Both the position numbers and the translations under genes were made by a program. DNA of 56,330 nucleotides from positions 128,001 through 184,330 of the forward strand of contig JAFKGI010000012.1 in NCBI GenBank assembly GCA_017307785.1. Direction: 5' to 3'. Positions 41,422 through 56,330 of this stretch are shown here, in pieces. Every line of letters begins with the position of its first letter. The stretch's first letter is position 1. Origin of the DNA: Vulcanimicrobiota bacterium. GTDB lineage: Bacteria; Vulcanimicrobiota; Xenobia; Xenobiales; JADMJV01. The notes under the pieces were generated by a model. That model had not been told where the DNA came from. It saw only the letters and a program-made list of their open reading frames with translations, and ran no database searches.

Positions 41422-42708
41422 TCAAGGAACGACCACGCCCACCTGATCCAGACCAGAAATGCCAAACCACAGGTTGCCGTCCGGCCCCGGATTGATGCCA
41501 TAAGGCCGCGACAAAGCGGTCAGTGCTGCAGAGGTAAACTCGCTCACCACACCGGTCTGCGTGATCCGCCCCAGCCGGCCTCCCTGGTACTCGGTAAACC
41601 AGAGGTTCCCGTCCGCTCCGGCACAGATGCCGACCGGCCTCGCCGCCGCGCTGATCCCCGAGGAGAACTCCGTAATCACACCGGCCGGGGTGATCCGCCC
41701 GATGCGATTCCCGCCGAACTCGGTGAACCACAGGTTGCCGTCCGGTCCCGCGCAAATCCCTTCGGGCGCGGACCCGGCCGTAATTCCAGTCGAGAACTCT
41801 GTCACCACCCCCGCGGTGGTGATACGTCCAATGCGATTCCCGCCGAAGTCGGTGAACCACAAATTACCATCCGGACCGCTGCAAATCTGGCTGGGGAGAG
41901 CTCCTCCGCTAATTCCCGCGGAAAACTCGGTGATGACGCCGGCAGGCGTGATGCGCCCGATGCGGCCGCTATTCTGCTCGGCGAACCAGAGATTTCCATC
42001 CGGTCCCGCACAAATTCCGTAAGGACCGCTTGCAGCCGTAAGTCCCGCCGAGAACTCGGTGACTACCCCGGCCGTCGTGATCCGTCCGATGCGGTTTCCG
42101 GCAATCTCGGTGAACCACAGATTCCCATCCGGTCCGGCGCAGATGACATAGGCCTGAGCGCCGCTGGTCAGGCCGGGAAATTCGGTGACAGCGCCACTAC
42201 TGGGATTCAACCGGCCAACCCGATCTCCGCCGTTCTCGATGAACCAGAGGTTGCCGTCGGGTCCCGCGCAAACGCCGGTTGGAGCAGCCCCTGCGGAAAT
42301 ACCGGTGCTCACGGCCTGAATGGTTCCGACGGGCGGAACCACCCGCAGGTTAGAGTTCGCACTCAGCCCACCGAAAGCCGCCGTAATTGTGGCCGACACC
42401 GCCGGAATCACCTGGGTCAGAGACTGGCCCGTGGCCAGGCCGCTGTTGGAAACCACACTGGCGGCCCCCGGATTGGAAGAAGTCCAGGTCGCCAGATTGG
42501 CCACGTTCGCACTCTGACCATCGCTGCTGGTAGCGGTCGCCACAAACTGCAGGGTCTCGCCCGAATGAATGCGGGCAGAAACGGGACTGACCGCCAAACC
42601 CGTCAGGGTCGGCAACGGGACGAAGCCCCGATCTCCACTCGTGCTACTGCCGCAGCCCAGTGCGAACAGCGCCAGACTTAAAATTGTCGTACGCAATGCA
42701 GAACTCAT
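41422..42708 (-). CDS. Vgb (streptogramin B lyase)-like 7-bladed beta-propeller lipoprotein with Big_2-like N-domain
   Basis: Lipobox LALFALGCGSS. The Big_2-like segment is LTGLAVSPVSARIHSGETLQFVATATSSDGQS. Seven repeats of ICAGPDGNLWFTE....IGRIT..G...EF. Confidence 0.75.
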   Translation of the reverse strand: MSSALRTTILSLALFALGCGSSTSGDRGFVPLPTLTGLAVSPVSARIHSGETLQFVATATSSDGQSANVANLATWTSSNPGAASVVSNSGLATGQSLTQVIPAVSATITAAFGGLSANSNLRVVPPVGTIQAVSTGISAGAAPTGVCAGPDGNLWFIENGGDRVGRLNPSSGAVTEFPGLTSGAQAYVICAGPDGNLWFTEIAGNRIGRITTAGVVTEFSAGLTAASGPYGICAGPDGNLWFAEQNSGRIGRITPAGVITEFSAGISGGALPSQICSGPDGNLWFTDFGGNRIGRITTAGVVTEFSTGITAGSAPEGICAGPDGNLWFTEFGGNRIGRITPAGVITEFSSGISAAARPVGICAGADGNLWFTEYQGGRLGRITQTGVVSEFTSAALTALSRPYGINPGPDGNLWFGISGLDQVGVVVP

Positions 42709-42874
42709 AACCCGGAAGATATCGCGAGACCAGCAACCACTCCTGCTTCCGGAAACAAATCGCCAGCATCATGCCCGCCTATCCCGACGGCAGCGCCCTC
42801 CTATACCAATCCACAAGGAAAACCGCCCGTCTCTCTCGACTCATGGAGAAACCATCGCAAACGAAGGAGTTCCC

Positions 42875-44146
42875 ATGAAATCAACCCTACGATCCGGCCT
42901 GCTGACCCTGGCCTTGCTGACCCTCGGATGCGGTGGCAGCACCTCGGACAACCTGGGTGTGCAAACCCCGACCCTCGCCTCCCTGACCGTAACCCCCGCG
43001 TCGGCCCGCCTCCTTTCCGGACAGACCCTGCAATTCACGGCCACCGCCACCGCCAGCGACGGACGCAGCGGCGACGTCACCTCCCTATCCACCTGGGCCT
43101 CCTCCAACAACTCGGCCGTCACCATCGTCGGCAACACCGGCCTGGCCACCGCCCAATCCATCACCCAGGTCGTGCCCGCCCTCACCGCCACCATCACGGC
43201 CGCCTTCCAGAACCTCAACGCCAGCACCAGCCTCAGACTGATCCCGGCCACGGGCACCATCCAGCGTCTCACCACCGGCCTCACCGCCGCCGCCGGCCCC
43301 ACCTGCATCTGCACGGGCCCCGACGGCAATCTCTGGTTCACCGAAAACGGCACCAGCAGCATCGGCCGAATCAACCCGACCACCGGAGAGATCACGGAAT
43401 TTTCCGGCCTGAGCGGAGTCCGCCGGCCCAACTTCATCTGCGCCGGACCGGACGGCAACCTCTGGTTCACCATCGGCAGCATCGACCGCATTGGCCGCAT
43501 CACCCCCGCCGGCGTGATCACCGAATTCTCCACCGGCATCTCCGCCAAGTCCTACCCCTACGGCATCTGTGCCGGTCCCGACGGCAACCTCTGGTTCACC
43601 GAAATCGACACCAACCTCATCGGCCGCATTACCCCGGCCGGAGTGGTCACCGAATTTCCCGTCCCCACGGCCGGCGTCGAACCGTTCCAGATTTGCAGCG
43701 GCCCGGACGGCAACCTGTGGTTCACCGAGCATGTCGGAAATCGCATCGCCAAAATCACCACCGCCGGCGTGGTCACGGAATTCTCCGGCCTCACCGCCAA
43801 CAGTGGCCCCGACGGAATCTGCGCCGGCCCCGACGGCAACCTCTGGTTCACCGAAAGAGACCGCGACGCCATCGGCCAGATCACCACCGCCGGCGTCATC
43901 AGCGAATTTAGCGCCGGCATCACCGCCGGCGCCTTGCCCCACACCATCACCCCCGGACCCGACGGTAATTTCTGGTTTGTCGAACTGGCCGGCCGCATCG
44001 GACGCATCACCCCCGGCAGCGATGTCACCGAATTCACCGGCCCCCTCACCAACAACTCGATTCCCTTCGCCATCACCCCCGGACCCGACGGCAATCTCTG
44101 GTTCACCGAACTGGTCGGAAATTCGGTCGACGTCCTCGTCCCCTAA
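42875..44146 (+). CDS. Vgb-like beta-propeller lipoprotein (paralogue, divergently transcribed)
   Basis: AAGGAG 5 nt before the ATG. LALLTLGCGGS lipobox, Big_2-like segment, and the same GPDGNLWFTE/IGRIT repeat seven times. Confidence 0.75.
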   Translation: MKSTLRSGLLTLALLTLGCGGSTSDNLGVQTPTLASLTVTPASARLLSGQTLQFTATATASDGRSGDVTSLSTWASSNNSAVTIVGNTGLATAQSITQVVPALTATITAAFQNLNASTSLRLIPATGTIQRLTTGLTAAAGPTCICTGPDGNLWFTENGTSSIGRINPTTGEITEFSGLSGVRRPNFICAGPDGNLWFTIGSIDRIGRITPAGVITEFSTGISAKSYPYGICAGPDGNLWFTEIDTNLIGRITPAGVVTEFPVPTAGVEPFQICSGPDGNLWFTEHVGNRIAKITTAGVVTEFSGLTANSGPDGICAGPDGNLWFTERDRDAIGQITTAGVISEFSAGITAGALPHTITPGPDGNFWFVELAGRIGRITPGSDVTEFTGPLTNNSIPFAITPGPDGNLWFTELVGNSVDVLVP

Positions 44147-44249
44147 AATACAGCAGCGCAACCGCTCACCGGTAACAAGGGAACCGCTGAGCGGTTGCCC
44201 GCCCCACACCCCCAGGGGAGCCCCAACCCCCCGCCGAATCCGCATTCCC

Positions 44250-46739
44250 ATGCTGCTCGTGCAAACCGCCGACGACCTCCTCTACGTCCCCGACCGGGAC
44301 ATCGCCAGCATCATGCCCACCTACCCCGACCGCTGGCGCATCGTCCTGCAAGACGGCCGCGTCGGCCACCGCACCGGCCCCGCCCCCCAAGGTCCCTGGG
44401 TCCCCCTGCAAAACGGCTGGGTCCGCCCCGAGCATCTGAAGAAAGAAGACAACCACTGGGTTGACCCGGCCGGCTTCCGCTACCCCTACCAACCCCTCGA
44501 CATCCCCGAAGAAGAAGAACCAGCCAGTGACCTCCCGCCCGGCCTGCTCACCGTCGAAAGACGCGATAAAACCTGGTTCTGGTGCACCGACAGCGGAGAA
44601 CTCCCCTGCGAAGGCCCTCCCCAACCCCACCCGGACCTGGCCCAACTCACCCCCCATCAGCTGGTCTACCTTCCGCGCGTGCGCCGCCTGTACACCACTC
44701 CCCCGGGTCCGTGCGCCGCCCTCGAACTGGACAACGGCCGGCAACTCAAAGTCCTGGGCGGCCTCTACTTCCGCCTGGCCAACCGGCTGGGCCTGGAAAG
44801 CTTCGTCTCCCTCGACCTCAGCGTCCCCGAGACCATGTGGAAACTGCGCGACTTCCCCTACGACCTTACCAGTGCCGACCCCGACAAAATCCTAAAAGAC
44901 CTCCCCACAGAACTGGCCTTCCTACAAAACCTGCTCTGGCAAGTGGCCACCCAGAACCGAACCAATGACTACGACAAAGCCGGCTTCGCCCAGCATCCCA
45001 TGCTCAGCTCGGCCCGCCGCTGCGGCTACCATCCCACCAAAGGGCGCATCTACATGCTCCTCCATCAATTGACCGTGGAACAAGAACTCTTCACCCTGCG
45101 CCAGCTCGGCTTCCGCGAAATCAGTCCCGAGCGTCGCCTCACCGGCAGCCGCCACCCCAACGTCGTGCTGCTCGCCCCCCACCCCGAACTCCAGGCAGCC
45201 CGCAAAGCCGCCCGGGAACACGGCATCAGCCTGCTCATCACCGGCAACTCCGGGGCCATCACCCAAGAATACCTGGCCGCCGAACTCAGCGGACCCATCC
45301 AAATTCTCCGCTACAACGTCCCCGACAACGAAATCAAAACCCTGCGCAAACGCTTCGCCCAACTCGGCTTGCCCAGCGGCCCGCCGATCCTGGTCCAAAA
45401 CCTGCAAAACATCCCGTCCCACCAACCGACCGCGCTCACTCCCCAACCCTTCAGCCGCATCCCCCTCCAGGACTTCACCGGCCTCTACTACGCCGACCCC
45501 CAGGAAATCGCCGCCTGGACCCCCACTCGCCCCGAAGGCTACCGGGTCGACCTCCACAACGGCCGCATCCTCCACCACCCCGGCCCCCCGCCACCCATCC
45601 CGCCACAAAGCCCGGTCGACCCCCGCCTCCAGCTCAAGAAACACCAATGGCACCTCGATGACGGCACCCAACAGAAAACAGGGCTCGACTTCCTGGACGC
45701 CGCCGCCCAACATCCCAGCCTGGCCGGCCGCACCAAAGACCACCGCTTCAACTACAACCGCCTGCGCTCCAGCGACCCCCTGCATCTGCACCTGGACGAC
45801 GGCACCGCCCTGCCCGTTCCCCAGCGCCTGTGGCGCCATAAACTACAAACCATCCTGGGCATCGACAACCTGGCCGAACTCTCCCCCGACCCCCATTGCC
45901 GCCGCTACCTCCAACTACGCGATCTACCCTACGAAATCGTGCGCGCCAAAGCAGACAAACTTCAAGCCGACTTCCCCGACTGGACCCAGCTCATCGCCAA
46001 CATCGTCTGGCAAGTCTATTGCGAACGCTACCAATACGCAGATACCTTCCAGGGCTTCTTCTACCGCCCCCTGCAGGCCGTGCTCTACCGCGCCGGCTAC
46101 CTCACCCGCGCCCAACTCAGAAGCCCCAGCGCGGCCAAAGACAGATTCTACGCTCGCTACTGCACCCTGCTCACCCGCATGGTCCGCCACTACCGCCTCT
46201 TCCACTATCACCAGATCGGCTTCGTCGACCCCTTTCCGGCCAGCCGCATCCTGGGCGACCGCCATCCCCAGCGCATCCTGCTGGTGGAAAAAGGCGACTT
46301 GCTGGAAGAACACGCTCTGCAACTCCAAAAAGAATTCGGCCTCACCGCCCTCATCCTCAAAGGCTGCCCCTCGCTGCTGGCCACCGAATACTTCTGCAAA
46401 GCCCTGCGCGAAATCTATCAAGGCCCTGTGGAAGTCTACTACTACGGCGACTTTGACGATGCCGGCTGGGATATCGGACCCGCCTTTGTCAAGCAGTTGC
46501 TCTTCTACGGCATCCAGTGCGTCCGAATGGAACGACTGGTTCTCCCACAGATCTTCACCCCCGAAGAGCAAATGCTCTACTCCCGCCCCCTGGATGCCCA
46601 AGCCCCCCACCTGATCACCCGCCAGCAACGCTTCCTCCAAGAAAGCGGCGGCGTCCAGGGCCAGCTGCGCGGCATCCACGGCAACTGGCTGCAGCCCTAC
46701 AGCCGCCTGCGCACCCGCCTCGAGGAACTCATGCCATGA
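44250..46739 (+). CDS. Gene A: tandem-duplicated protein, N-module with degenerate TOPRIM and C-module with intact Spo11/TopoVI-A/JetD-like TOPRIM
   Basis: 829 aa. Two homologous modules of about 415 aa (LRDFPYDL...LLWQV and LRDLPYEI...IVWQV). Module 2 has RILLVEKGDLLEE, then YYYGDFDDAGWDI about 55 aa later, then ESGGVQGQLRGIHGNWLQP. Module 1 has VVLLAPHPELQAA and ILRYNVPDNEI at the same places. Confidence 0.6.
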   Translation: MLLVQTADDLLYVPDRDIASIMPTYPDRWRIVLQDGRVGHRTGPAPQGPWVPLQNGWVRPEHLKKEDNHWVDPAGFRYPYQPLDIPEEEEPASDLPPGLLTVERRDKTWFWCTDSGELPCEGPPQPHPDLAQLTPHQLVYLPRVRRLYTTPPGPCAALELDNGRQLKVLGGLYFRLANRLGLESFVSLDLSVPETMWKLRDFPYDLTSADPDKILKDLPTELAFLQNLLWQVATQNRTNDYDKAGFAQHPMLSSARRCGYHPTKGRIYMLLHQLTVEQELFTLRQLGFREISPERRLTGSRHPNVVLLAPHPELQAARKAAREHGISLLITGNSGAITQEYLAAELSGPIQILRYNVPDNEIKTLRKRFAQLGLPSGPPILVQNLQNIPSHQPTALTPQPFSRIPLQDFTGLYYADPQEIAAWTPTRPEGYRVDLHNGRILHHPGPPPPIPPQSPVDPRLQLKKHQWHLDDGTQQKTGLDFLDAAAQHPSLAGRTKDHRFNYNRLRSSDPLHLHLDDGTALPVPQRLWRHKLQTILGIDNLAELSPDPHCRRYLQLRDLPYEIVRAKADKLQADFPDWTQLIANIVWQVYCERYQYADTFQGFFYRPLQAVLYRAGYLTRAQLRSPSAAKDRFYARYCTLLTRMVRHYRLFHYHQIGFVDPFPASRILGDRHPQRILLVEKGDLLEEHALQLQKEFGLTALILKGCPSLLATEYFCKALREIYQGPVEVYYYGDFDDAGWDIGPAFVKQLLFYGIQCVRMERLVLPQIFTPEEQMLYSRPLDAQAPHLITRQQRFLQESGGVQGQLRGIHGNWLQPYSRLRTRLEELMP

Positions 46740-48022
46740 TCCAAATCCAGGACGAAAACGGCCTCAGCCTCTGGCCCGAGCAACTCATCGTTTCCATCAC
46801 CCCCGCCTACCCCAACCGCCTGTGCGTCACCTGCGCGGACGGAACCGTCGGCTACATGCCCCACCCCATCCCCCCGGACTGGCCCAGCTCCACAGAATAC
46901 CAGCCCGAGCCTCACTGGGGCCTGCTACGCACTCCCGACGCCCTGCTCTGGGACGGCAGCCAGCTCTGCCTGCAAAGCCTGGAGGAAGCCACTCAGAATC
47001 TCTTCCAGGCCGGCCGCCACCTCTGGCTCCATCCCCGCCGCATACGCCGCGTCAGCAAACAAAGCGGCGGCCTGCTGCTTCTCACCGATGAAGGCACCGA
47101 ACTCGTCATCACCCCCCACTGGAGCCAGCAAGTGCTGAAGGCCCTGCACATCCCTTACCTCCCCGACGCCCCCAGCGGACCCTTTCTGCGCGACTATCCC
47201 TTCGAACTCGCCCGCGCCTCGGCGGCCGTCCTGCGCCAACACTTCGCCGACCCCAACACCCTCATCGCCAACCTCATCTGGCAACAACTCGTCTACCACC
47301 AGAGCGGCATCCACAAGGGCTACGGCACCAGCCCCCGAGGCTTCTGGTACGTCCCCGGGGCGGCCACCCTGGCCCGCCTCGGCAGCATCAGCGCCCATCA
47401 AGCGGAAATGATCTACTACCGCCTGCTCGTCAAACTCATCGACGACGATCGCCTCTTCGGCTACCGCGACCTTGGCTTCGCGGACCCCGGCGCCGACAGT
47501 CGAGAAATCGGCACCCACCACCCCGGCATCCTTCTGGTCATCGAAAAAACCGACCTGGCCAAAACTGGTGTCGCCGCCGCCCGCCACTTCGGCCTCAGCT
47601 GGCACATCACCGGCGGAATCTCCCGCCTGTTCACCGCCGAATTCTGCGCCTACGCCCTCCAACAAGCCGGCCAACAAAGCCTGCGCACCCTCATCTTCGG
47701 CGACTACGACCCCGGCGGCCGCGTCAACGGCCGAGCCATCGTGGCCCACCTCGACCGCTTCGGCACCCCCACCCCCGCCGGCCCCGAATTCCTCATCGAC
47801 GCCTCCGCCTTCACCGAAGAAGAACTCGAACTCTTCTCCCATCCCCTCAGCCAGGACGACGAACGCGTCCAAAAATGGCTCCAAGAAACCGGCGGAATCC
47901 ACGGCCAACCCAACGGCATCCACGCCGACTGGCTTCAGCCCCCCGAACGCCTCCTCCCCCTGATCGAGGCCAAACTTAGCCTGGCAGCTCCGGCGGCGCC
48001 ACCAGCCGACTCCGCACCTTGA
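46736..48022 (+). CDS. Gene B: single-module paralogue of gene A with intact TOPRIM-like motifs
   Basis: 428 aa. ATGA overlap with gene A. GILLVIEKTDL ... LIFGDYDPGGRVNGRAI ... ETGGIHGQPNGIHADWLQP. The N-region aligns to both A modules (SITPAYPNRLCVTCADGTVGY vs SIMPTYPDRWRIVLQDGRVGH). Confidence 0.6.
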   Translation: MIQIQDENGLSLWPEQLIVSITPAYPNRLCVTCADGTVGYMPHPIPPDWPSSTEYQPEPHWGLLRTPDALLWDGSQLCLQSLEEATQNLFQAGRHLWLHPRRIRRVSKQSGGLLLLTDEGTELVITPHWSQQVLKALHIPYLPDAPSGPFLRDYPFELARASAAVLRQHFADPNTLIANLIWQQLVYHQSGIHKGYGTSPRGFWYVPGAATLARLGSISAHQAEMIYYRLLVKLIDDDRLFGYRDLGFADPGADSREIGTHHPGILLVIEKTDLAKTGVAAARHFGLSWHITGGISRLFTAEFCAYALQQAGQQSLRTLIFGDYDPGGRVNGRAIVAHLDRFGTPTPAGPEFLIDASAFTEEELELFSHPLSQDDERVQKWLQETGGIHGQPNGIHADWLQPPERLLPLIEAKLSLAAPAAPPADSAP

Positions 48023-49541
48023 CCTCCACCTCACTGCGCCGCGTCGCCCAGGCCGGAAACGGAAACGTCACCACCAGCGGCAACGGCACTTCCGGCTGAG
48101 CCACAATCATCGTCCCCGGCGCCAACAACGTCGCCCGCCGCCGCAAACTCTCGCCCAACCAGGCATACTGCTCGCGCGCCGCCTCCGCCGATTCCAAGCG
48201 GCCCACCACGCGCAGCGCCGAATTCCCCACCACCCGCTCCTCCACTTGAGAAGCCGTCTGCTCCGCCCCTACCAGCACCACTCCCAGACTACGCCCGCGT
48301 TCGGCCACATCCAACAACATCTGACGAATGGCATCGCCTCCATCGCGAGGCGCATACTTATTCAACTCGTCCACCATCAAATAGGTGGTGGGAAACCCGT
48401 CCGGCATCGACTCCCGCGCCAGAAACACCGTCTGCAGAACCGCCCCCAGCACAAAGGCCCTGGCCCGATCCGAAAGCCGATGCACATCCACCACATTCAT
48501 CTGCCCCTCAAACGGATCAAACCGCCCCTCGGCCCCGACCAATCCCGCAATCTGCGGACCCAACGCCTTCAAACGCCGCGCCAACGCCCGCCGAGTCGGC
48601 GTGGTCACATTCTCATACCACTTGCTATCGGCCTTGCCAGACTCCGCAATCAAAAACTGCACCAGCCCCGCCATATCGCTCACCGACTGCCCACCCAGCA
48701 ACAAACCAGAACCCTCGGAAACGGACGCAGCCTCACGCAAACACTCCAGCAACCGCTCCACTCCGAATTCCATCACCCCGGTCTGTTCCGTATCCGCCAG
48801 CAAATAGCGCAAAAACTCCCGTTCGGCAAACTCGCGCAACGTCCACAACGGCCGGCTCACCCCATGAAAAACAACCTCAGAAAACGGCTCGCATGGCAAC
48901 TCCAACTGCTCATAAACCGCCCGCTGCTCCGCGCTCAAGCGGGCATTCGGACGATCCAAATACAACAAATCATCGCCCTTCACATTGAACAAAATGGCCC
49001 GCGAATTTCGCCCCGCCTCGCTCTGAAACAAGCTGTAGAGCAAAAACAAAGCATAACTCGTCTTGGTGGCCACCCCGGAAATCCCGGCAATGTTCACGTG
49101 AGCCCCCTTCACCCCGGAAAGAAAGTCCACATTCGCATAGGCCGCCATCCCATTTCTCATCACCCCAACCGGAATACGCCGAGTCATCGAATCAAAGCGC
49201 ATCGCCCAATTCACATTTGCCACCGAACAACGCTTTACCGACATCCCTGGCAAGGGCGGCAAATAAACCTCCGGATACGTCCGAATCACTCTCACCAAAG
49301 CCCGATAATGCTTGCCCACCCCGATGGCATCCACCACCCCGAAATGCCCCACCCAGCCCACATTCTCTACCTTCCGCCAGGTCTCCACCACCGCCCCCAG
49401 CTCCAGCTCCTGCGGCGAACGCACCTCCACCGTAAACTCCAGCGGCGACGCCACCGGCCGCGCGGAAACAACCATCGGAAACCCTGCATCATCACTCATC
49501 CCCGCCCATTCGCCCCGCCCCCTCAGACCTCCCGCGCCCAA
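47976..49541 (-). CDS. Gene C: HerA/DUF87-like P-loop ATPase
   Basis: N-terminal barrel-like region, P-loop variant HVNIAGISGVATKTSYAL, Walker B TTYLMVDELNKYAP (cf. HerA hhhDEAHxxxP). 47-nt convergent overlap with gene B. Alternative starts at 49499 or 49475. Confidence 0.55.
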   Translation of the reverse strand: MGAGGLRGRGEWAGMSDDAGFPMVVSARPVASPLEFTVEVRSPQELELGAVVETWRKVENVGWVGHFGVVDAIGVGKHYRALVRVIRTYPEVYLPPLPGMSVKRCSVANVNWAMRFDSMTRRIPVGVMRNGMAAYANVDFLSGVKGAHVNIAGISGVATKTSYALFLLYSLFQSEAGRNSRAILFNVKGDDLLYLDRPNARLSAEQRAVYEQLELPCEPFSEVVFHGVSRPLWTLREFAEREFLRYLLADTEQTGVMEFGVERLLECLREAASVSEGSGLLLGGQSVSDMAGLVQFLIAESGKADSKWYENVTTPTRRALARRLKALGPQIAGLVGAEGRFDPFEGQMNVVDVHRLSDRARAFVLGAVLQTVFLARESMPDGFPTTYLMVDELNKYAPRDGGDAIRQMLLDVAERGRSLGVVLVGAEQTASQVEERVVGNSALRVVGRLESAEAAREQYAWLGESLRRRATLLAPGTMIVAQPEVPLPLVVTFPFPAWATRRSEVEVKVRSRLVAPPELPG

Positions 49542-49582
49542 AGCAGGGCCAAGAAACCCAATTCCCGAAAGCCAATTCCCTC

Positions 49583-52500
49583 ATGGCGGGTGGAGCAAAT
49601 TTCGGATTCCTGGAACAACACGATCCCCAGCTCATGCACCTGGCCCAGCGCGCCGAACGCTACCTGGCCGACGACCCCAACACCTGCCTCATCAAATTGC
49701 GCCAATTCGGCGAATTGCTCATCAAGCACGTAGCCGCCCAGCACCGCCTTCAGGAAGCCGAGAACTTCGCCGCCACCATCCATCTGCTCCAACGCGAAGG
49801 CGTCCACGCCAGCGTCATTCAGGGCTTCCACGACCTGCGCCGGGCCGGCAATGACGCCGTCCACGGCTTCCGCGGCGACCACCAAGAAGCACTGCTCAAA
49901 CTCAAAACCGCCCGCGCCATGGGCACCTGGTATCACCGCGTCACCAAAGACCGCAGCTTCGAACCCGGCCCCTTCGTCCCGCCCCCCAGCGACGACGAAC
50001 AACTCCAGCAACTCCAGGACCAGCTCCAACAAGCCCTGCTGGAAAAACAACGCGCCCAGAACGTCGCCGAAACCGAAGCCCAGGCCCGCGCCCAGGCCGA
50101 ACTCAAAGCCTTGCAGGCGGCCGAAGAAGCCGCCAGCTGGAAAAGCCTGGCCGAAGAAACCACCTCACCAACCCCTGTGGCCACCGTCCCCCTCGAGGAG
50201 CTCAAAACCGCCACCGCCCAACAACCCCTCGACGAAGACGAAGCCGACACGCGCATCAAAATCGACGCCCAACTGCGCGCCGCCGGCTGGCAGGTGGACA
50301 GCGTCGAGCTCCGCTACGCCAAAGGCGCCCGCCCCCAGCAAGGCAAAAGCCTGGCCATCGCCGAGTATCCCACCCCCAAAGGACCAGCCGACTACGTCCT
50401 CTTCCTGGGCCTCACCCCGGTCGCCATCGTCGAGGCCAAGCGCAAAACCAAAGACGTCTCGGCCAGCCTGGAACAAGCTCGCCGCTATGCCAAAGCCCTG
50501 CCCGACCCCATCCCCTTCCTCTTTGCCACCAACGGCCGCCCCTACCTCAGACAGCTGATCGAGAAAAGCGGCGTCTGGTTCCGCGACGAACGCCGTCCCC
50601 AAAACCGCGCCCACGCCCTCAAAGACTGGTACACCCCCAAAGGCCTGGAAGCTCTACTCGCCCAGGACCTCGACCAGGCCCACCAAAAGCTCGAAAAAGA
50701 GCCTTTCGCCTACCTGCAACTACGCGACTACCAGATCCAGGCCATCCAATCGGTGGAAGCCGCCATCGCCGAAGGCAAACAGGACATCCTGCTGGCCATG
50801 GCCACCGGCACCGGCAAAACCCGCACCGCCATCGGCCTCATCTACCGCCTGCTCAAAAGCAAACGCTTCCGCCGCATCCTCTTCCTGGTCGACCGAACCG
50901 CCCTGGGCAACCAGAGCTTCAACGCCTTCGAGCACTTCCGCCTGGAACAAAACCAGACATTCACCGAGACCTACGACGTCAAGTCCCTGGGCGACGTCAC
51001 CCCCGACGAAACCACCAAAGTCCACATCGCCACCATCCAGGCCACCATCCAACGAGCCCTGGAAAGCGACGAGGCCAACGCCCCCGTCGACCAGTACGAC
51101 TGCATCCTGGTCGACGAATGCCATCGTGGCTACAGCCTGGATCGCGAACTCACCGACAACGAGCTCACCTACAAAAACGAGCAAGACTACATCTCCCAAT
51201 ACCGCCGCGCCCTCGACCACTTCGACGCTGTGCGCATCGGCCTCACCGCCACTCCCGCCCTGCACACCACCGAAATCTTCGGCCCGCCCATCTTCCTCTA
51301 CAGCTACCGCCAGGCCGTCATCGACGGCTACCTGGTCGACCACGAACCCCCCCTGCAAATCGTCACCAAACTTGCTCAAGATGGCATGGTCTGGCCCGCC
51401 CAGTCAGAGATGCTCCTCTACAACACCCAAACCCAAATGCCAGAAACCACCTGGCTACCCGACGAAGTCAAAATCGACCTGGAAAAGTTCAACAAGACCG
51501 TCCTCACCGAGAACTTCAATCAGGCCGTCTGCCAGGAACTGGCCCGCCACATTGACCCCACCCTGCCCGGCAAAACCCTGGTCTTCTGCGCCACCGACCT
51601 GCACGCCGACATGGTCGTACGCCTGCTCAAAGAAGCCTTCGAAGACGCTCCCGAACAGGCGGTCGTCAAAATCACCGGCGCCTCCGACAAACCCAACGAA
51701 CTCATCCGCCGCTTCAAAAACGAACAATACCCCAGCGTGGCCGTCACCGTCGACCTGCTCACCACCGGCGTCGACGTCCCGCAGATCTGCCACATCGTCT
51801 TCCTGCGCCGCGTCAAAAGCCGCATTCTCTACCAACAAATGATCGGCCGCGCCACCCGCCTGTGCAAAGACTTCCTCAAAGAAAGCTTCCACATCTACGA
51901 CGCCGTCGAACTCTACAAAGACATGGACGAGTTCTCCGACATGAAGCCGGTGGTGGTCAACCCCAAAACCACCGTCGAGCAGCTGGTGCGCGAACTCACC
52001 ACCGCCCCCGAAGAGGCCCGCCACGAAGTCTTAGACCAGCTGCTCGCCAAACTCCAGCGCAAAAAACGCAGCCTCCAGGGCAACACCTTCCAAGAACTCG
52101 CCGGCCAGACCTTAGCCGACCTCATCGAGCAACTGCGCGGCCAGACCCCCGAACAAGTCGCCACCTACTTCGGCGAACGCTTCGCCCTGGTCAGCTACCT
52201 CGACACCCACAAACCCAACCCCGCCCTCTATGTCGTCTCCACCCACGAAGACGAAGTCGCCTACACCGCCCAAGGCTTCGGCCCCGGCAACCAGCCCCCG
52301 GCCGACTACTTAGAAGGCTTCGCCCACTTCATCCAACAAAACCTCAACGAAGTCGCCGCCCTCACCCTGGTCACCCAACGCCCCAGAGACCTCACCCGCG
52401 AAGACCTCCGCCAATTACGCCTCCTCCTGGATAACGCCGGCTTCTCCGAAACCCAACTCAAAGCCGCCTACCGCAGAACCACCAACCAGGACATCGCCGC

Positions 52501-52801
52501 CAGCATCATCGGATTCATCCGCCAAAAAGCCCTCGGCTCCCCCCTCATCCCCTACGAAGAACGCGTCGACAAAGCCCTCAAAAAGGTCCTCTCCACCCGC
52601 CCCTGGACCGACCCCCAACGCAAATGGCTCGACCGCATCGCCAAACAGCTCAAAAAAGAAGTCATCGTCGACCACCACGCCCTCGATCAAGGCGAATTCG
52701 CCGCCCACGGCGGCTTCCAAACCATCAACAAAAAACTCGACGGCCAGCTCGCCAACCTCCTGGCCCAGTTCCAAGACGCCATCTGGGACGACGTCGCCTG
52801 A
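49583..52801 (+). CDS. hsdR: Type I restriction enzyme R subunit with DUF4145-like N-terminal domain
   Basis: EADTRIKIDAQLRAAGW (HsdR N-motif), LLAMATGTGKTRTAI (Walker A), ILVDECHRG (DECH), helicase C-domain QMIGRATR. About 200 aa N-terminal extension: FGFLEQHDPQLMHLAQRAERYL... Confidence 0.9.
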   Translation: MAGGANFGFLEQHDPQLMHLAQRAERYLADDPNTCLIKLRQFGELLIKHVAAQHRLQEAENFAATIHLLQREGVHASVIQGFHDLRRAGNDAVHGFRGDHQEALLKLKTARAMGTWYHRVTKDRSFEPGPFVPPPSDDEQLQQLQDQLQQALLEKQRAQNVAETEAQARAQAELKALQAAEEAASWKSLAEETTSPTPVATVPLEELKTATAQQPLDEDEADTRIKIDAQLRAAGWQVDSVELRYAKGARPQQGKSLAIAEYPTPKGPADYVLFLGLTPVAIVEAKRKTKDVSASLEQARRYAKALPDPIPFLFATNGRPYLRQLIEKSGVWFRDERRPQNRAHALKDWYTPKGLEALLAQDLDQAHQKLEKEPFAYLQLRDYQIQAIQSVEAAIAEGKQDILLAMATGTGKTRTAIGLIYRLLKSKRFRRILFLVDRTALGNQSFNAFEHFRLEQNQTFTETYDVKSLGDVTPDETTKVHIATIQATIQRALESDEANAPVDQYDCILVDECHRGYSLDRELTDNELTYKNEQDYISQYRRALDHFDAVRIGLTATPALHTTEIFGPPIFLYSYRQAVIDGYLVDHEPPLQIVTKLAQDGMVWPAQSEMLLYNTQTQMPETTWLPDEVKIDLEKFNKTVLTENFNQAVCQELARHIDPTLPGKTLVFCATDLHADMVVRLLKEAFEDAPEQAVVKITGASDKPNELIRRFKNEQYPSVAVTVDLLTTGVDVPQICHIVFLRRVKSRILYQQMIGRATRLCKDFLKESFHIYDAVELYKDMDEFSDMKPVVVNPKTTVEQLVRELTTAPEEARHEVLDQLLAKLQRKKRSLQGNTFQELAGQTLADLIEQLRGQTPEQVATYFGERFALVSYLDTHKPNPALYVVSTHEDEVAYTAQGFGPGNQPPADYLEGFAHFIQQNLNEVAALTLVTQRPRDLTREDLRQLRLLLDNAGFSETQLKAAYRRTTNQDIAASIIGFIRQKALGSPLIPYEERVDKALKKVLSTRPWTDPQRKWLDRIAKQLKKEVIVDHHALDQGEFAAHGGFQTINKKLDGQLANLLAQFQDAIWDDVA

Positions 52802-52886
52802 GGAGGCTCGACTCGTCAAAAGAGATTGTCTACACAATGTGTAGACAATCTTAGCGGGTAAGCCCCTACAACTTCGACTGGTCCAA

Positions 52887-53258
52887 TTAAGCCGAGGCCC
52901 CGCGATTCTTTCTGGGGAGACCGGTGAACTTCTTCAGCAACGAAGGTTCTTCCAAAAACTCCAGAATTCGCGCAGCCGAGCGCGACGGATTTCGAAGCCC
53001 CTGCTCCCAACTACTGACCGCGTCCGTCGACACCCCCACCACTCGAGCAAGAAACGCCTGACTGTAACCCAGCTGCTCGCGCAGCTGCCGAACGCCCGCT
53101 GCACCATAAACCTTTGGAGGATCAGGCACTTCGACTTCTCGCGTTTTCAGGCTGATCTTGCCCTGCTCGAAAGCCAGAACCTCCTCGAGCCCCTGCAGAA
53201 TCTCGCTAGCAACGCTAGAGCGTTTTTTCATCGTGACCACTCCTTCTTTTGACTTCAA
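52887..53258 (-). CDS. HigA-like antitoxin (XRE-family HTH)
   Basis: LREQLGYSQAFLARVVGVSTDAVSSWEQGLRNPS helix-turn-helix. Lies downstream of and overlapping the toxin gene. Region GC is lower than the surroundings. Confidence 0.7.
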   Translation of the reverse strand: MKSKEGVVTMKKRSSVASEILQGLEEVLAFEQGKISLKTREVEVPDPPKVYGAAGVRQLREQLGYSQAFLARVVGVSTDAVSSWEQGLRNPSRSAARILEFLEEPSLLKKFTGLPRKNRGASA

Positions 53259-53583
53259 GTTGTATCGCTTCCGCCAGAGAACGAAAGGCCTTTTTGTCGT
53301 CTGAACTCAGGTCGTCGCATTCATCCTTACTGTAGAGCGTGAGGAGATAGATTCTTTTAGCCGCAACAATCGGCAGATAGACGATGCGCAAACCGCTGCG
53401 CTTACCTTTGCCCCTGGCGCTCTCCGCCCATCGAATCTTGCGTATGCCACCACACCCCGGGATAACGACTCCAACCTCCGGATTCCTGACCAGCTCCTCC
53501 TGAAACCTGGCAAACTCGTCATCTCGCGACATCAGCTTGAGAAGCTTCTGCGTAAAGATGCGAGTTTCTACAAAAAGATACAC
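53215..53583 (-). CDS. HigB-like (RelE/ParE superfamily) toxin
   Basis: GKGKRSGLRIVYLPIVAAKRIYLLTLYSKDECDDLSSDDKKAF matches the GKsGGyRvIY...IYLLxIYxKxExxDLs killer-protein motif. The toxin-first gene order is HigBA-like. Confidence 0.65.
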   Translation of the reverse strand: MYLFVETRIFTQKLLKLMSRDDEFARFQEELVRNPEVGVVIPGCGGIRKIRWAESARGKGKRSGLRIVYLPIVAAKRIYLLTLYSKDECDDLSSDDKKAFRSLAEAIQLEVKRRSGHDEKTL

Positions 53584-53896
53584 CCCGAACTATACGACAA
53601 AGTCGCACAGATTGCCTACCGTCCCTGTAATATCCGGACTGCCCGGATCGTCTAAGAAAATGAGAAAACTACAAACGGAGGCGATCGTGAGACCACGCGT
53701 TGGACTAAATAGAGCGATAGCAAACACTTCCCCAGAGGAAGCTGAGCAGAGATTGGCGGCCAGGGGCCTCGATCTCGAACAATACCGCGCCGAGTCCCGC
53801 TCTCACGCCCGTACGAGGGCCGGCGGATTTGCTGGCGCGTCTTGCTGTGCAGCCTCCCCTTGCAGGACTAAGCCCGCCAACGCGAATCCCCGCCCT

Positions 53897-55303
53897 ATGT
53901 CACTCGTCGCCCCAACCCAAGACATCGTCGCCAAACTCTGGAACCTCTGTCACGTCCTGCGCGACGACGGCATCACCTACCACGAATACGTCACCGAGCT
54001 CACCTACCTGCTCTTCCTCAAAATGGCCCAGGAGACCAAAAAAGAAGACCAGTTGCCGCCCCACTACCGCTGGGCCGACCTCGCCTCCAAAGACGGCATC
54101 GAACAGCTCGACTTCTACCGCGCCATGCTCCTCCACCTCGGCACCGACTCCGAGTCCCCCCGCGTGCGCGCCATCTTTGCCAACGCCAACAGCGCCCTGC
54201 GCGCCCCCAAAAACCTCAAAACCCTCACCGACAGCATCAACAGCCTCGACTGGTACAGCGCCCGCAGCGAAGGCCTCGGCGACCTCTACGAAGGCCTGCT
54301 CGAGAAGAACGCCAACGAAACCAAATCCGGCGCCGGCCAATACTTCACCCCAAGACCCCTCATCGACACCATCGTCCACCTCATGGATCCCCAACCCGGC
54401 GAACTCATCCAGGACCCCGCCTCCGGCACCGGCGGCTTCCTCATTGCCGCCAACCGCCACATCCGCGAAAAAACCGACGACCTCTTCGAACTCAAAGAAG
54501 ACCAACAATACTTCCAGCGCAACCGCGCCATCTACGGCATGGAACTCGTCCCCGACGTCCAACGCCTCGCCCTCATGAACCTCATGCTCCACGACCTCGA
54601 CTCCGACATCACCCTCGGAGACGCCCTCAGCCCCGACGGAGCCAACCTCCCCAAAGCCGACCTCATCCTCACCAACCCACCCTTCGGCTCCAAAAAAGGC
54701 GGCGGCCTCCCCACCCGCGACGATTTTACCTATCCCACCTCCAACAAACAATTAGCCTTCCTCCAGCACATCTACCGAGGACTAAAACCCGGAGGCCGCG
54801 CCGCCGTCGTCCTCCCCGACAACGTCCTCTTCGAAGGCAACGTCGGCGCCAAAATCCGCGCCGACCTCATGGAAAAAACCAACCTCCACACCATCCTCCG
54901 ACTCCCCACCGGCATCTTCTACGCCCAAGGAGTCAAAACCAACGTCCTCTTCTTCACCCAAGGAACCCCCACCACCACCACCTGGATCTACGACCTCCGA
55001 ACCAACATCCCCCAATTCGGCAAACGCACCCCCCTCACCCGAGGCCACTTCGCCGACTTTGAAACCGCCTACCACAACCGCACCGATCAAGGAGAAACCG
55101 GCCGCCTCCGCCCCTACACCCGCGACCAGATCCGCGACCGCGGCGAAAACCTCGACATCACCTGGCTCCGCGACGAAAACGCCGACCACGCCGACGACCT
55201 CGGCGAACCCGCCGAGATTGCCGCCGAGATCATGTCGAATCTCCGGACCGCAATGGAAGAAATGGAAGCGCTGATGGAAGCTCTTGAGGGTGGCAAAAGT
55301 TAA
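53897..55303 (+). CDS. hsdM: Type I restriction-modification N6-adenine DNA methyltransferase subunit
   Basis: N-terminus IVAKLWNLCHVLRDDGITYHEYVTELTYLLFLKM parallels EcoKI HsdM. FTPRPLIDTIV (motif I region), LILTNPPFG (NPPF, motif IV). The upstream extension in the ORF track is rejected. Confidence 0.9.
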   Translation: MSLVAPTQDIVAKLWNLCHVLRDDGITYHEYVTELTYLLFLKMAQETKKEDQLPPHYRWADLASKDGIEQLDFYRAMLLHLGTDSESPRVRAIFANANSALRAPKNLKTLTDSINSLDWYSARSEGLGDLYEGLLEKNANETKSGAGQYFTPRPLIDTIVHLMDPQPGELIQDPASGTGGFLIAANRHIREKTDDLFELKEDQQYFQRNRAIYGMELVPDVQRLALMNLMLHDLDSDITLGDALSPDGANLPKADLILTNPPFGSKKGGGLPTRDDFTYPTSNKQLAFLQHIYRGLKPGGRAAVVLPDNVLFEGNVGAKIRADLMEKTNLHTILRLPTGIFYAQGVKTNVLFFTQGTPTTTTWIYDLRTNIPQFGKRTPLTRGHFADFETAYHNRTDQGETGRLRPYTRDQIRDRGENLDITWLRDENADHADDLGEPAEIAAEIMSNLRTAMEEMEALMEALEGGKS

Positions 55304-56330
55304 TGGATGCAACGGAGAGCCTGCATGAGAGCATCCAACAAAACCTTGGCCAAGATTTGCCTCCAATCCCCAAACACTGGTCGTGGGCGACGGCAGACCA
55401 AGTATGTCTCAACAAAATTTCCTCGGGGGGGACTCCAACCGGTCGGATGACGCAGGACGGACAGGTTCCATTCCTCAAAGTCTATAATCTGACGTTTACT
55501 GGAGAATTGGACTTCACTCGAGAGCCCACATTCATCGACTTTGAAACCCACGAAAAGGTCTTAAAAAAGTCCCGTCTATTGCCTGGCGACGTCCTGATGA
55601 ATATTGTTGGCCCCCCCTTGGGCAAAGTCTCTATCGTTCCCGACGACTATCCAGAGTGGAACATGAACCAGGCCATCGTGTTCTTCCGGACCTCTCACCT
55701 CTATTCGAACAAACTGCTCTGTCTTTGGCTCAGAGGCGAGTTTGCGAAGAAGTTCTTTGGCCAGGAAGCAAAAGCTACCGCCGGGCAGTACAATGTTCGA
55801 ACTTCCAAATGCCGGCAGCTACCGATTCCGGTCCCGCCAGCGGACGAGCAACGCCGCATCGTCGCCCGCATCGAAGAACTCACCGCTCGCAGCAAAACCG
55901 CCAAACAAGCCCTCCAAGCCATCCCCCCCCTCCTGGAAAAATTCCGCCAATCCGTCCTGGCCGCTGCCTTCCGCGGCGACTTGACCGCCGACTGGAGGTT
56001 GAAGAACGTAGGCACCCCCTCTGCGGATACATTTCTTGCTGGGGTTCGGGAAGAGCTTGCAAGGAACCGGCTCGATAAATCTCAGGCAAAACGTAGCAAC
56101 GATGATCGGCAATTGTTGGGACCAGCAGGCTCTCCAGCACTGCCAACTGGATGGGCATGGGCCAAGCTGGAAGACATTACGTATAATCTTGACGGGCGCA
56201 GGATCCCGTTGGTAGCTAGCGAGCGCGCGAAGCGCCGCGGTCCTTATCCCTACTACGGAGCATCGGGTGTCATTGATGGACTAAATGACTTCATCTTCGA
56301 AGGTCCGCATCTACTTGTAGCAGAGGATGG
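55303..56330 (+). CDS. hsdS: Type I restriction-modification specificity subunit, 3' end beyond window
   Basis: TAATG overlap with hsdM. Target-recognition domain followed by the conserved central coiled-coil PVPPADEQRRIVARIEELTARSKTAKQALQ, then a second TRD starting PALPTGWAWAKLEDI. Confidence 0.85.
   Translation, partial: MDATESLHESIQQNLGQDLPPIPKHWSWATADQVCLNKISSGGTPTGRMTQDGQVPFLKVYNLTFTGELDFTREPTFIDFETHEKVLKKSRLLPGDVLMNIVGPPLGKVSIVPDDYPEWNMNQAIVFFRTSHLYSNKLLCLWLRGEFAKKFFGQEAKATAGQYNVRTSKCRQLPIPVPPADEQRRIVARIEELTARSKTAKQALQAIPPLLEKFRQSVLAAAFRGDLTADWRLKNVGTPSADTFLAGVREELARNRLDKSQAKRSNDDRQLLGPAGSPALPTGWAWAKLEDITYNLDGRRIPLVASERAKRRGPYPYYGASGVIDGLNDFIFEGPHLLVAED

Follow-up and report, generated by a model that had tools for sequence, protein, structure and literature searches.

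A HigBA2 toxin-antitoxin cassette in a variable slot between hsdR and hsdM of an EcoKI-type restriction-modification locus from the Vulcanimicrobiota

Type I restriction-modification (R-M) loci frequently hold embedded genes, and the hsd locus described here, at the end of a 56,330-nucleotide stretch (the window) of contig JAFKGI010000012.1 from a Vulcanimicrobiota bacterium, holds a toxin-antitoxin (TA) pair between hsdR and hsdM. In the RRDM island of enteropathogenic Escherichia coli (EPEC) the TA module DarTG2 is located between hsdS and hsdR, a position put forward as a hotspot where defence cargo recombines (PMC12255303). A catalogue made under the term 'guilt-by-embedding' lists thousands of genes embedded in BREX, DISARM and type I R-M loci, and in it PrrC was found almost nowhere but inside loci of the last kind (10.1101/2024.01.29.577857). 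The cassette described here resembles DarTG2 in being a TA module between genes of a type I R-M system. DarTG2, however, lies between hsdS and hsdR, is co-oriented and is under the RptR repressor, whereas the cargo here occupies the hsdR-hsdM gap and runs antisense to both genes, with no RptR-like regulator seen, and its toxin belongs to a messenger RNA endonuclease (mRNase) family rather than to the DNA ADP-ribosyltransferases.

In EcoKI, hsdR and hsdMS are separate transcription units and, if the same holds here, the segment between hsdR and hsdM is a gap between units rather than the interior of an operon. The E. coli gap is 200 bp long and empty, and of the 938 E. coli genomes having the hsdR-hsdM junction 929 showed it unbroken, while the gap here is 1.1 kb and holds the TA cassette.

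Our reading, to which we give a probability of about 0.85, is that of an intact EcoKI-type type IA R-M locus in which HsdR has the normal HEPN domain of its family and the hsdR-hsdM gap is an exchangeable slot holding a mobile HigBA2 cassette that is not coupled to the restriction enzyme. The gene identities, the intact motifs, the mobility of the cassette and the variability of the slot are directly supported. No description was found in the literature of a HigBA2 pair at a type IA hsdR-hsdM junction or of a lineage with such turnover of the slot; both are variations on the known theme of embedded TA and defence genes.

The hsd genes and the N-terminal domain of HsdR

Family matches and motifs mark this as an intact R-M system of the canonical type IA (EcoKI family) in a Candidatus Eremiobacterota metagenome-assembled genome (MAG); a protein encoded upstream in the window was identical to J0I12_13035, a hypothetical protein from a Candidatus Eremiobacteraeota MAG. 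HsdR matched the NCBIfam equivalog model NF008521 ('type I restriction-modification system endonuclease') with 1421 bits, well above the cutoff of 729, with residues 5-1070 covering profile positions 4-1121 of 1123. BLASTP aligned its residues 1-1072 with residues 1-1170 of the E. coli K-12 EcoKI HsdR at 41% identity, and HsdM was 52% identical to EcoKI HsdM over its full length. The Pfam domains of HsdR followed in the order DUF4145, HSDR_N, ResIII, Helicase_C and EcoEI_R_C. Its motifs were intact in translation, including ADY...VEAKR of the PD-(D/E)xK nuclease and motifs I, II and VI of a superfamily 2 (SF2) helicase (AMATGTGKT, DECH and QMIGRATR), and the EADTRIKID motif was located at about residues 219-227. 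HsdM likewise had intact S-adenosylmethionine (DPASGTGGF) and NPPF (TNPPFG) motifs and matched Pfam N6_Mtase (E 1.1e-75) and HsdM_N, while HsdS matched Pfam Methylase_S and PADLOC Specificity_I (E 1.3e-54).

Although the longest open reading frame (ORF) opens with a TTG further upstream, hsdM was taken to start at ATG 53897, and its stop codon at 55303 overlaps the hsdS start codon as TAATG. Logan contigs from SRR13325153 were 100% identical to the window, and one of them (L001) supplied the full hsdS. The 480-residue product, encoded directly after hsdM, had two Methylase_S stretches, which fits two target-recognition domains. A reading of this DNA made earlier from the letters and ORFs alone (the sequence-only reading) had called a type I R-M locus with an hsdM/hsdS overlap of TAATG; Pfam, NCBIfam and the EcoKI alignments agree with that call, the overlap was seen, and every feature that it placed was present at or near the position given. 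Membership in MADS, prompted by matches to mad2, mad5 and mad8, was rejected as the type I models scored far higher. HsdM had 688 bits with PADLOC MTase_I against 220 bits with mad2 and only 104 bits with NCBIfam MAD2 (cutoff 720), and the sole mad8 match was the neighbouring HerA-like gene (E 9e-11).

From their families, HsdM and HsdS would together methylate a bipartite target, and HsdR, as a PD-(D/E)xK nuclease and SF2 translocase, would cut unmethylated DNA. The gene order hsdR-hsdM-hsdS is that of EcoKI, with hsdM and hsdS overlapping in both loci, and both HsdR proteins have the same series of HEPN/DUF4145 domain, coiled coil, PD-(D/E)xK nuclease, SF2 motor and EcoEI_R_C tail. The coiled coil here is, however, about 65 residues shorter, and the nuclease domain is without two insertions found in EcoKI HsdR.

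Anantharaman et al. (2013, PMC3710099) assigned DUF4145 to the HEPN superfamily and reported it fused with restriction endonuclease and SF2 helicase modules, and it is also present in abortive infection (Abi)-type and other defence proteins (PMC3710099). In RAZR, DUF4145 is the catalytic ribonuclease (RNase) domain, with a catalytic R146/H154 pair, and this domain was recently shown to matter for RNA cleavage and defence (PMC13017515). The sequence-only reading had described about 200 extra residues of the DUF4145 type at the N-terminus of HsdR. The domain type was borne out, as Pfam DUF4145 (PF13643) matched residues 23-101 with 28.1 bits (cutoff 23.1), but the residues were not extra: the protein aligned from residue 1 with EcoKI HsdR, and its N-terminal region proved to align with ordinary HsdR N-domains, an outcome that the same reading had named as one that would undo its claim. 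EcoKI HsdR had a DUF4145 match of its own at residues 30-107, although a weaker one (19.9 bits), and the two N-termini shared the blocks NFGFLE.../NFEFLK..., DDPNT.LIK.R.FGE and FH.LRR.GN.AVH, followed by a Gln/Ala/Glu-rich coiled coil before the nuclease motif. Because HsdR aligns end to end with EcoKI HsdR, DUF4145 included, the roughly 200 N-terminal residues are standard architecture, and by these alignments the N-terminal HEPN domain with its coiled coil is normal for the EcoKI-type HsdR family.

A sequence search of the PDB with the HsdR N-terminus gave nothing significant and a fold search was used instead; the domain showed the all-alpha HEPN fold. The HEPN motif Rx4-6H was present within LRRAGNDAVH, where R87-x6-H94 fits. 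In 41 sequences H94 was invariant, and R86, G89 and N90 were each conserved in at least 90%. The spacing R86-x7-H94 is that of R146/H154 in RAZR. The domain therefore shares with RAZR and PD-T7-4 the Pfam family, the HEPN fold and the spacing from R to H, but RAZR is a stand-alone effector with a zinc finger that is activated by phage ring proteins, whereas the domain here forms the N-terminus of a DNA translocase-nuclease. No report was found in the literature of RNase activity for any HsdR, nor of a function for its DUF4145 domain.

These same precedents, the presence of DUF4145 in Abi-type and defence proteins and its role as the RNase domain of RAZR, could be taken to mean that the domain was a lineage-specific, Abi-like acquisition giving this HsdR an unusual extra function. 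We regard that explanation as scarcely tenable given the residue-for-residue alignment with the N-terminus of E. coli K-12 EcoKI HsdR and the place of the domain inside the NF008521 profile from position 4. All of the 120 homologues of the domain that were listed were short proteins, the source names, where given, were 'type I restriction enzyme R subunit' or a generic label, and the two examined on long contigs were N-terminal fragments of transposon-disrupted hsdR genes. The alignments thus already refute a lineage-specific nature of DUF4145 on this HsdR. What looked like an unusual 200-residue extension is how the best-studied type I enzyme normally begins, which is mainly a clean negative. 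It does leave an R/N/H motif strongly conserved in a domain of EcoKI-type HsdR with no assigned function, a directly testable question on a classic enzyme.

Stand-alone DUF4145 proteins were considered as a separate family and rejected, since the two examined were hsdR genes cut by an insertion sequence and by a Tn7/Mu-like element. In the first (L011:7001-14516) an EcoKI-type hsdR was split by a DDE transposase, and small ORFs, including one NTP_transf_2 (MNT)-like ORF, were located between hsdM and hsdS. In the second (L012:7001-10229) an EcoKI-type hsdR was cut by a Tn7/Mu-like transposase with an AAA_22 ATPase. A further locus (L005:3641-9086) had an internally deleted hsdR; downstream of it came an ORF that resembles the C-terminus of a polymorphic toxin, with a tandem pair of orf428-like genes behind it.

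The segment between hsdR and hsdM

Genome and metagenome scans with HsdR returned five relatives, too few for statistics. The nearest genome, 'Bacterium SZAS-1' (L004), had hsdR and hsdM genes with 89-91% nucleotide identity to those of the window. Homology between the two loci ends at the hsdR stop codon (52801) and restarts at 53858, some 39 nt before hsdM begins. Over the corresponding interval L004 carries an unrelated 2.5 kb, in which three ORFs (422, 189 and 219 residues, the second encoding a winged-helix protein) are read on the plus strand. In a metagenome contig (L008; HsdR 72% and HsdM 90% identical in protein) the slot was occupied by a minus-strand PemK/MazF-like toxin (21.9 bits, just under the Pfam cutoff) and an 82-residue upstream partner (L008:3691-4250). 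A third relative (L009), 87% identical over the HsdR C-terminus, had a minus-strand PLD-like gene directly after the hsdR stop codon. Three of the four cargos, that of the window included, were antisense to the hsd genes and two of the four were TA pairs, and none of the relatives compared had higBA in the slot. By this comparison the hsdR-hsdM interval of this lineage behaves as an exchangeable cargo slot, for which the conserved flanking genes could act as recombination arms.

A copy of the higBA2 pair was found in another Vulcanimicrobiota MAG (L006), far from any hsd gene and adjoining a serine recombinase (resolvase) and a group II intron reverse transcriptase. This copy was 65% identical in toxin protein and 68% in DNA, and both the promoter and the GTG start were conserved.

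Base composition also set the segment apart. The GC content of the interval 52802-53896 (1095 bp) was 0.552 against a mean of 0.619 (standard deviation 0.024) for 1095-bp windows, which placed it in the lowest 0.5%, and the global minimum of the 56-kb window (0.540 at 52651-53745) fell over the cassette, with hsdS alone comparably low. At third codon positions the GC skew (GC3 skew) was -0.63 for hsdR and -0.77 for hsdM, and the corresponding AT3 skew was +0.70 and +0.66. Read on the plus strand, the four-fold degenerate sites of the block between 42.8 and 55.3 kb held C 0.79 / G 0.13 in its five plus-strand genes; its HerA-like gene, which is on the minus strand, had C 0.66 / G 0.17, while higBA and hsdS had C 0.38 / G 0.22-0.26 (G 0.26 for the cassette). 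Elsewhere in the window, genes on the plus strand had C 0.59 / G 0.26 and those on the minus strand C 0.38 / G 0.39. As the minus-strand HerA-like gene shows the mirror image, the bias is one of the DNA strand rather than of codon preference. The cassette and hsdS, both being without the bias of hsdR and hsdM, appear as compositional newcomers on an older backbone. In L004, hsdR and hsdM were biased while the cargo and hsdS, and also the flanks, were unbiased.

An alternative is that the TA pair was ancestral and was lost or replaced in the relatives, the GC dip being that of small AT-richer genes and intergenic DNA. Small genes and intergenic DNA do often have lower GC, and hsdS was equally low. 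We consider this explanation highly improbable, however, as the slots of the relatives hold different cargos, none with higBA; the four-fold sites of the cassette (C 0.38 / G 0.26) depart from those of the HerA-like gene (C 0.66 / G 0.17); the same cassette stands beside a resolvase in another genome; and the toxin and antitoxin families also occur in phages. The sequence-only reading had proposed that the TA cassette was a later insertion and had noted low GC at 52.8-53.9 kb. The dip is real in sliding-window GC rather than noise, composition and relatives agree on a later arrival, and the comparison with related hsd loci that it had suggested showed other cargo in place of the TA insert. Its wording of an insertion into the R-M operon does not hold in that no gene is interrupted, one breakpoint falling at the stop codon of hsdR and the other roughly 40 nt ahead of hsdM.

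In a modest positive sense the slot is one more example of 'guilt-by-embedding', with HigBA2, a MazF-like pair, a PLD-like gene and a three-gene set as cargos against a fixed and empty gap in E. coli. Because the cargo varies here while the E. coli gap is fixed and empty, the unannotated cargos of the relatives are reasonable defence candidates, and on this reasoning the three slot genes of L004 are candidates by 'guilt-by-embedding'. The 422-residue protein of that set (L004:11227-13755) had weak PADLOC matches to the nitrilase-associated DRT and LmuA models, the 189-residue winged-helix protein had weak Csa3-like matches and the 219-residue protein had no matches. In L008 a 119-bp segment (L008:4323-4441) was a 91% identical duplicate of the coiled-coil region of its own hsdR (672-790) and looks like a recombination scar.

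Biased stretches were located at 42800-55300 of the window and at L004:8001-15186, L009:1-636 and L011:8356-12699. The last of these belongs to an unrelated EcoKI-type locus at the opposite extreme, with an hsdM GC3 skew of +0.77. As far as composition can suggest, the pattern is like that expected of deamination confined to a single strand (C to T and A to G). Replication-strand skew was rejected as its full cause, since the L004 flanks were unbiased and L011 was opposite.

The HigBA2 cassette and its regulatory region

On sequence and profile evidence the minus-strand pair is a HigBA2 module with a toxin of the PF06296 family. A profile of the toxin and three homologues matched the HigB-2 structures in the PDB (5JA9, 5JA8, 5MJE) with E 2.7e-33, full length over residues 2-107. 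Substitution of R51, R64, Y82 or K84 cuts the activity of Vibrio cholerae HigB2 (VcHigB2) 170- to 3000-fold (PMC5416850), and these residues correspond to R51, R66, Y84 and K86 of the toxin, all four of which were invariant among the homologues (alignment A1). The antitoxin matched V. cholerae HigA-2 (PDB 5J9I) over residues 8-95 (E 7.7e-6), which covered the N-terminal toxin-binding segment and the helix-turn-helix (HTH), and matched Pfam HTH_3 at residues 56-97 (E 1.2e-10). Its ORF extends over 52887-53258 on the minus strand, with the likely true start at ATG 53231 behind an AAGGAG ribosome-binding site, giving 114 residues. The toxin gene stands first and the genes overlap (53583-53215 and 53231-52887), as in higBA loci. 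Both proteins also matched phage families, the toxin phrog_5869 (E 5e-27) and the antitoxin phrog_2104 (E 1.8e-17).

The sequence-only reading had named a RelE/ParE-family toxin and an XRE-HTH antitoxin as a HigBA-like pair, which the matches to solved HigB-2 and HigA-2 structures confirm. It had also allowed that the two ORFs might lack homologues, which is not so, both having clear homologues that include solved structures. The models that it had put forward (TIGR02683, TIGR02684) gave no match, HigBA2 and PF06296 being found instead, and identity with those families was rejected: the toxin had no NCBIfam match, and the antitoxin had matches below cutoff to NadS, MqsA-type and other HTH models but not to TIGR02684.

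In common with V. cholerae HigBA2 (5JA8, 5JA9, 5JAA, 5J9I) the pair has the toxin gene first, the gene overlap, a Gly/Lys-rich beta2-beta3 loop and an antitoxin with an N-terminal toxin-binding segment and a C-terminal HTH. VcHigBA2 is chromosomally encoded, however, whereas the pair here is embedded in an hsd locus and known from sequence, and the toxin here has a slightly longer loop and C-terminal tail, with a GTG start directly after the -10 element. By homology HigB2 would be a ribosome-dependent mRNA endonuclease and presumably toxic, and HigA2 would neutralise it through the N-terminal segment and repress the operon through the C-terminal HTH.

A promoter scan of the higBA upstream region gave one match against 0.3 expected, and this promoter (53589-53618) contains CGACAAAGTCG. 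The promoter region was kept in the independent L006 copy, where the palindrome reads ACGAC-GCT-GTCGT, the joint form being (A/G)CGAC-N3-GTCGT. From its position and conservation the palindrome CGAC-AAA-GTCG is a candidate HigA2 operator. The GTG start of higB, conserved here and in L006, lies 5 nt past the predicted -10 TATAGT (53583-53594) with no Shine-Dalgarno sequence, which suggests a leaderless-like, GUG-initiated higB mRNA. At the other end of the cassette an inverted repeat (I1, 52823-52851) with 14-nt arms of 100% complementarity folded with -24.9 and -30.9 kcal/mol on the two strands (z-scores -4.5 and -6.3), is followed by CUUUU on the minus strand and probably terminates the convergent hsdR and higA transcripts. 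It was unique in the window and absent from L006, and was on those grounds rejected as a repeated element or operator. Terminal inverted repeats of the cassette were also sought; the best pair (I4, 16 nt, 81% complementary, 52841-52856 with 53604-53619) was rejected as a transposon end, because by our own estimate a few such pairs arise by chance in 1.2 kb and because it was not conserved in L006.

On this reading the slot holds a mobile HigBA2 cassette with its own predicted promoter and candidate operator, transcribed towards hsdR. The cassette would most likely be an autonomous addiction module or an abortive back-up that also stabilises the hsd island, with no mechanistic coupling to the restriction enzyme.

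Several points weigh against this reading. The toxin alone had 23.5 bits with Pfam PF06296, under the cutoff of 27, and no NCBIfam model matched it, although two of its homologues (65% and 50% identical) have a precomputed PF06296 assignment. The informative relatives were four in number (n=4), so that the frequency of slot exchange is anecdotal. No hsdM promoter was found by consensus scan, and expression of hsdMS could accordingly depend on cassette sequences, which would be some coupling.

A rival explanation is a functional tie between cassette and hsd genes: HigA2 could act on the divergent hsdMS promoter as a C protein does, or HigB2 could be a guard that, like PrrC within EcoprrI, is set off when restriction is blocked or host transcription collapses. 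A link of either sort is possible, as the whole upstream region of hsdM is cassette, the higBA promoter and the hsdM start sharing one cassette-derived divergent intergenic region of 313 bp (53584-53896) in which the scan detected no independent hsdM promoter. The antitoxin had a weak match to the PADLOC 'Control_protein' model (E 0.004), most slot cargos were antisense to the hsd genes and half of them TA pairs, and the almost exclusive embedding of PrrC in type I R-M loci offers a precedent. Two facts nevertheless speak against such a link: the cassette also occurs away from hsd genes, with the same promoter and palindrome, and the relatives run the same hsdM with wholly different upstream cargo. 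Moreover, CGAC-N3-GTCG occurs once only in the intergenic region, at the higB promoter, and E. coli type IA loci need no such partner. Coupling was on balance judged unlikely, and an uncoupled cassette in an exchangeable slot was preferred.

A broader proposal, that the hsdR-hsdM junction in this clade is a dedicated and recurrently reloaded docking site for abortive or toxin modules functionally tied to restriction, appears distinctly improbable. If it were true, cassette promoters could drive hsdMS with the antitoxin co-regulating methylation, or HigB2 could fire when restriction is inhibited, and with the conserved and apparently catalytic HEPN domain of HsdR added, type IA enzymes would become systems of two layers that act on both DNA and RNA.

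Feature coordinates and neighbouring genes

Table 1. Features of the hsd locus and its cassette, in positions of the window
Feature	Position	Strand	Description
hsdR	49583-52801	+	1072 residues; type IA (EcoKI-family) restriction subunit
N-terminal HEPN (DUF4145) domain of HsdR	49583-49957	+	about residues 1-125, with R86/R87-N90-H94
Gln/Ala/Glu-rich predicted coiled-coil linker of HsdR, HEPN to nuclease domain	49985-50227	+	from EcoKI HsdR alignment; PADLOC PDC-M16A on residues 5-182
Variable cargo segment	52802-53857		unrelated DNA in relatives; homology breakpoints against L004
Perfect 29-bp palindrome	52823-52851		between convergent hsdR and higA; likely terminator hairpin
higA2-like antitoxin	52887-53231	-	114 residues; N-terminal toxin-binding segment and C-terminal HTH
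higB2-like toxin	53215-53583	-	122 residues; RelE fold, ribosome-dependent mRNase family (PF06296)
Predicted higBA promoter	53589-53618	-	-35 TAGGCA, -10 TATAGT; palindrome CGAC-AAA-GTCG inside (53595-53605)
hsdM	53897-55303	+	468 residues; N6-adenine methyltransferase subunit
hsdS	55303-56330	+	specificity subunit; cut by window end, 480 residues in L001

Past hsdS, the L001 contig (L001:17102-19872) encodes a 294-residue protein with a weak HNH match, the 5' end of its gene overlapping the 3' end of hsdS, and a 567-residue minus-strand protein with no family match. These downstream genes are probably further foreign cargo because of their GC content of 0.49-0.50 and their want of strand bias. 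At the other side of the locus, two divergent paralogues at 41422-42708 (minus strand) and 42875-44146 (plus strand), with 66-70% nucleotide identity, encode beta-propellers of the Vgb_lyase family with an N-terminal Big_2 domain, and the boundary of the strand-biased block falls between the two.

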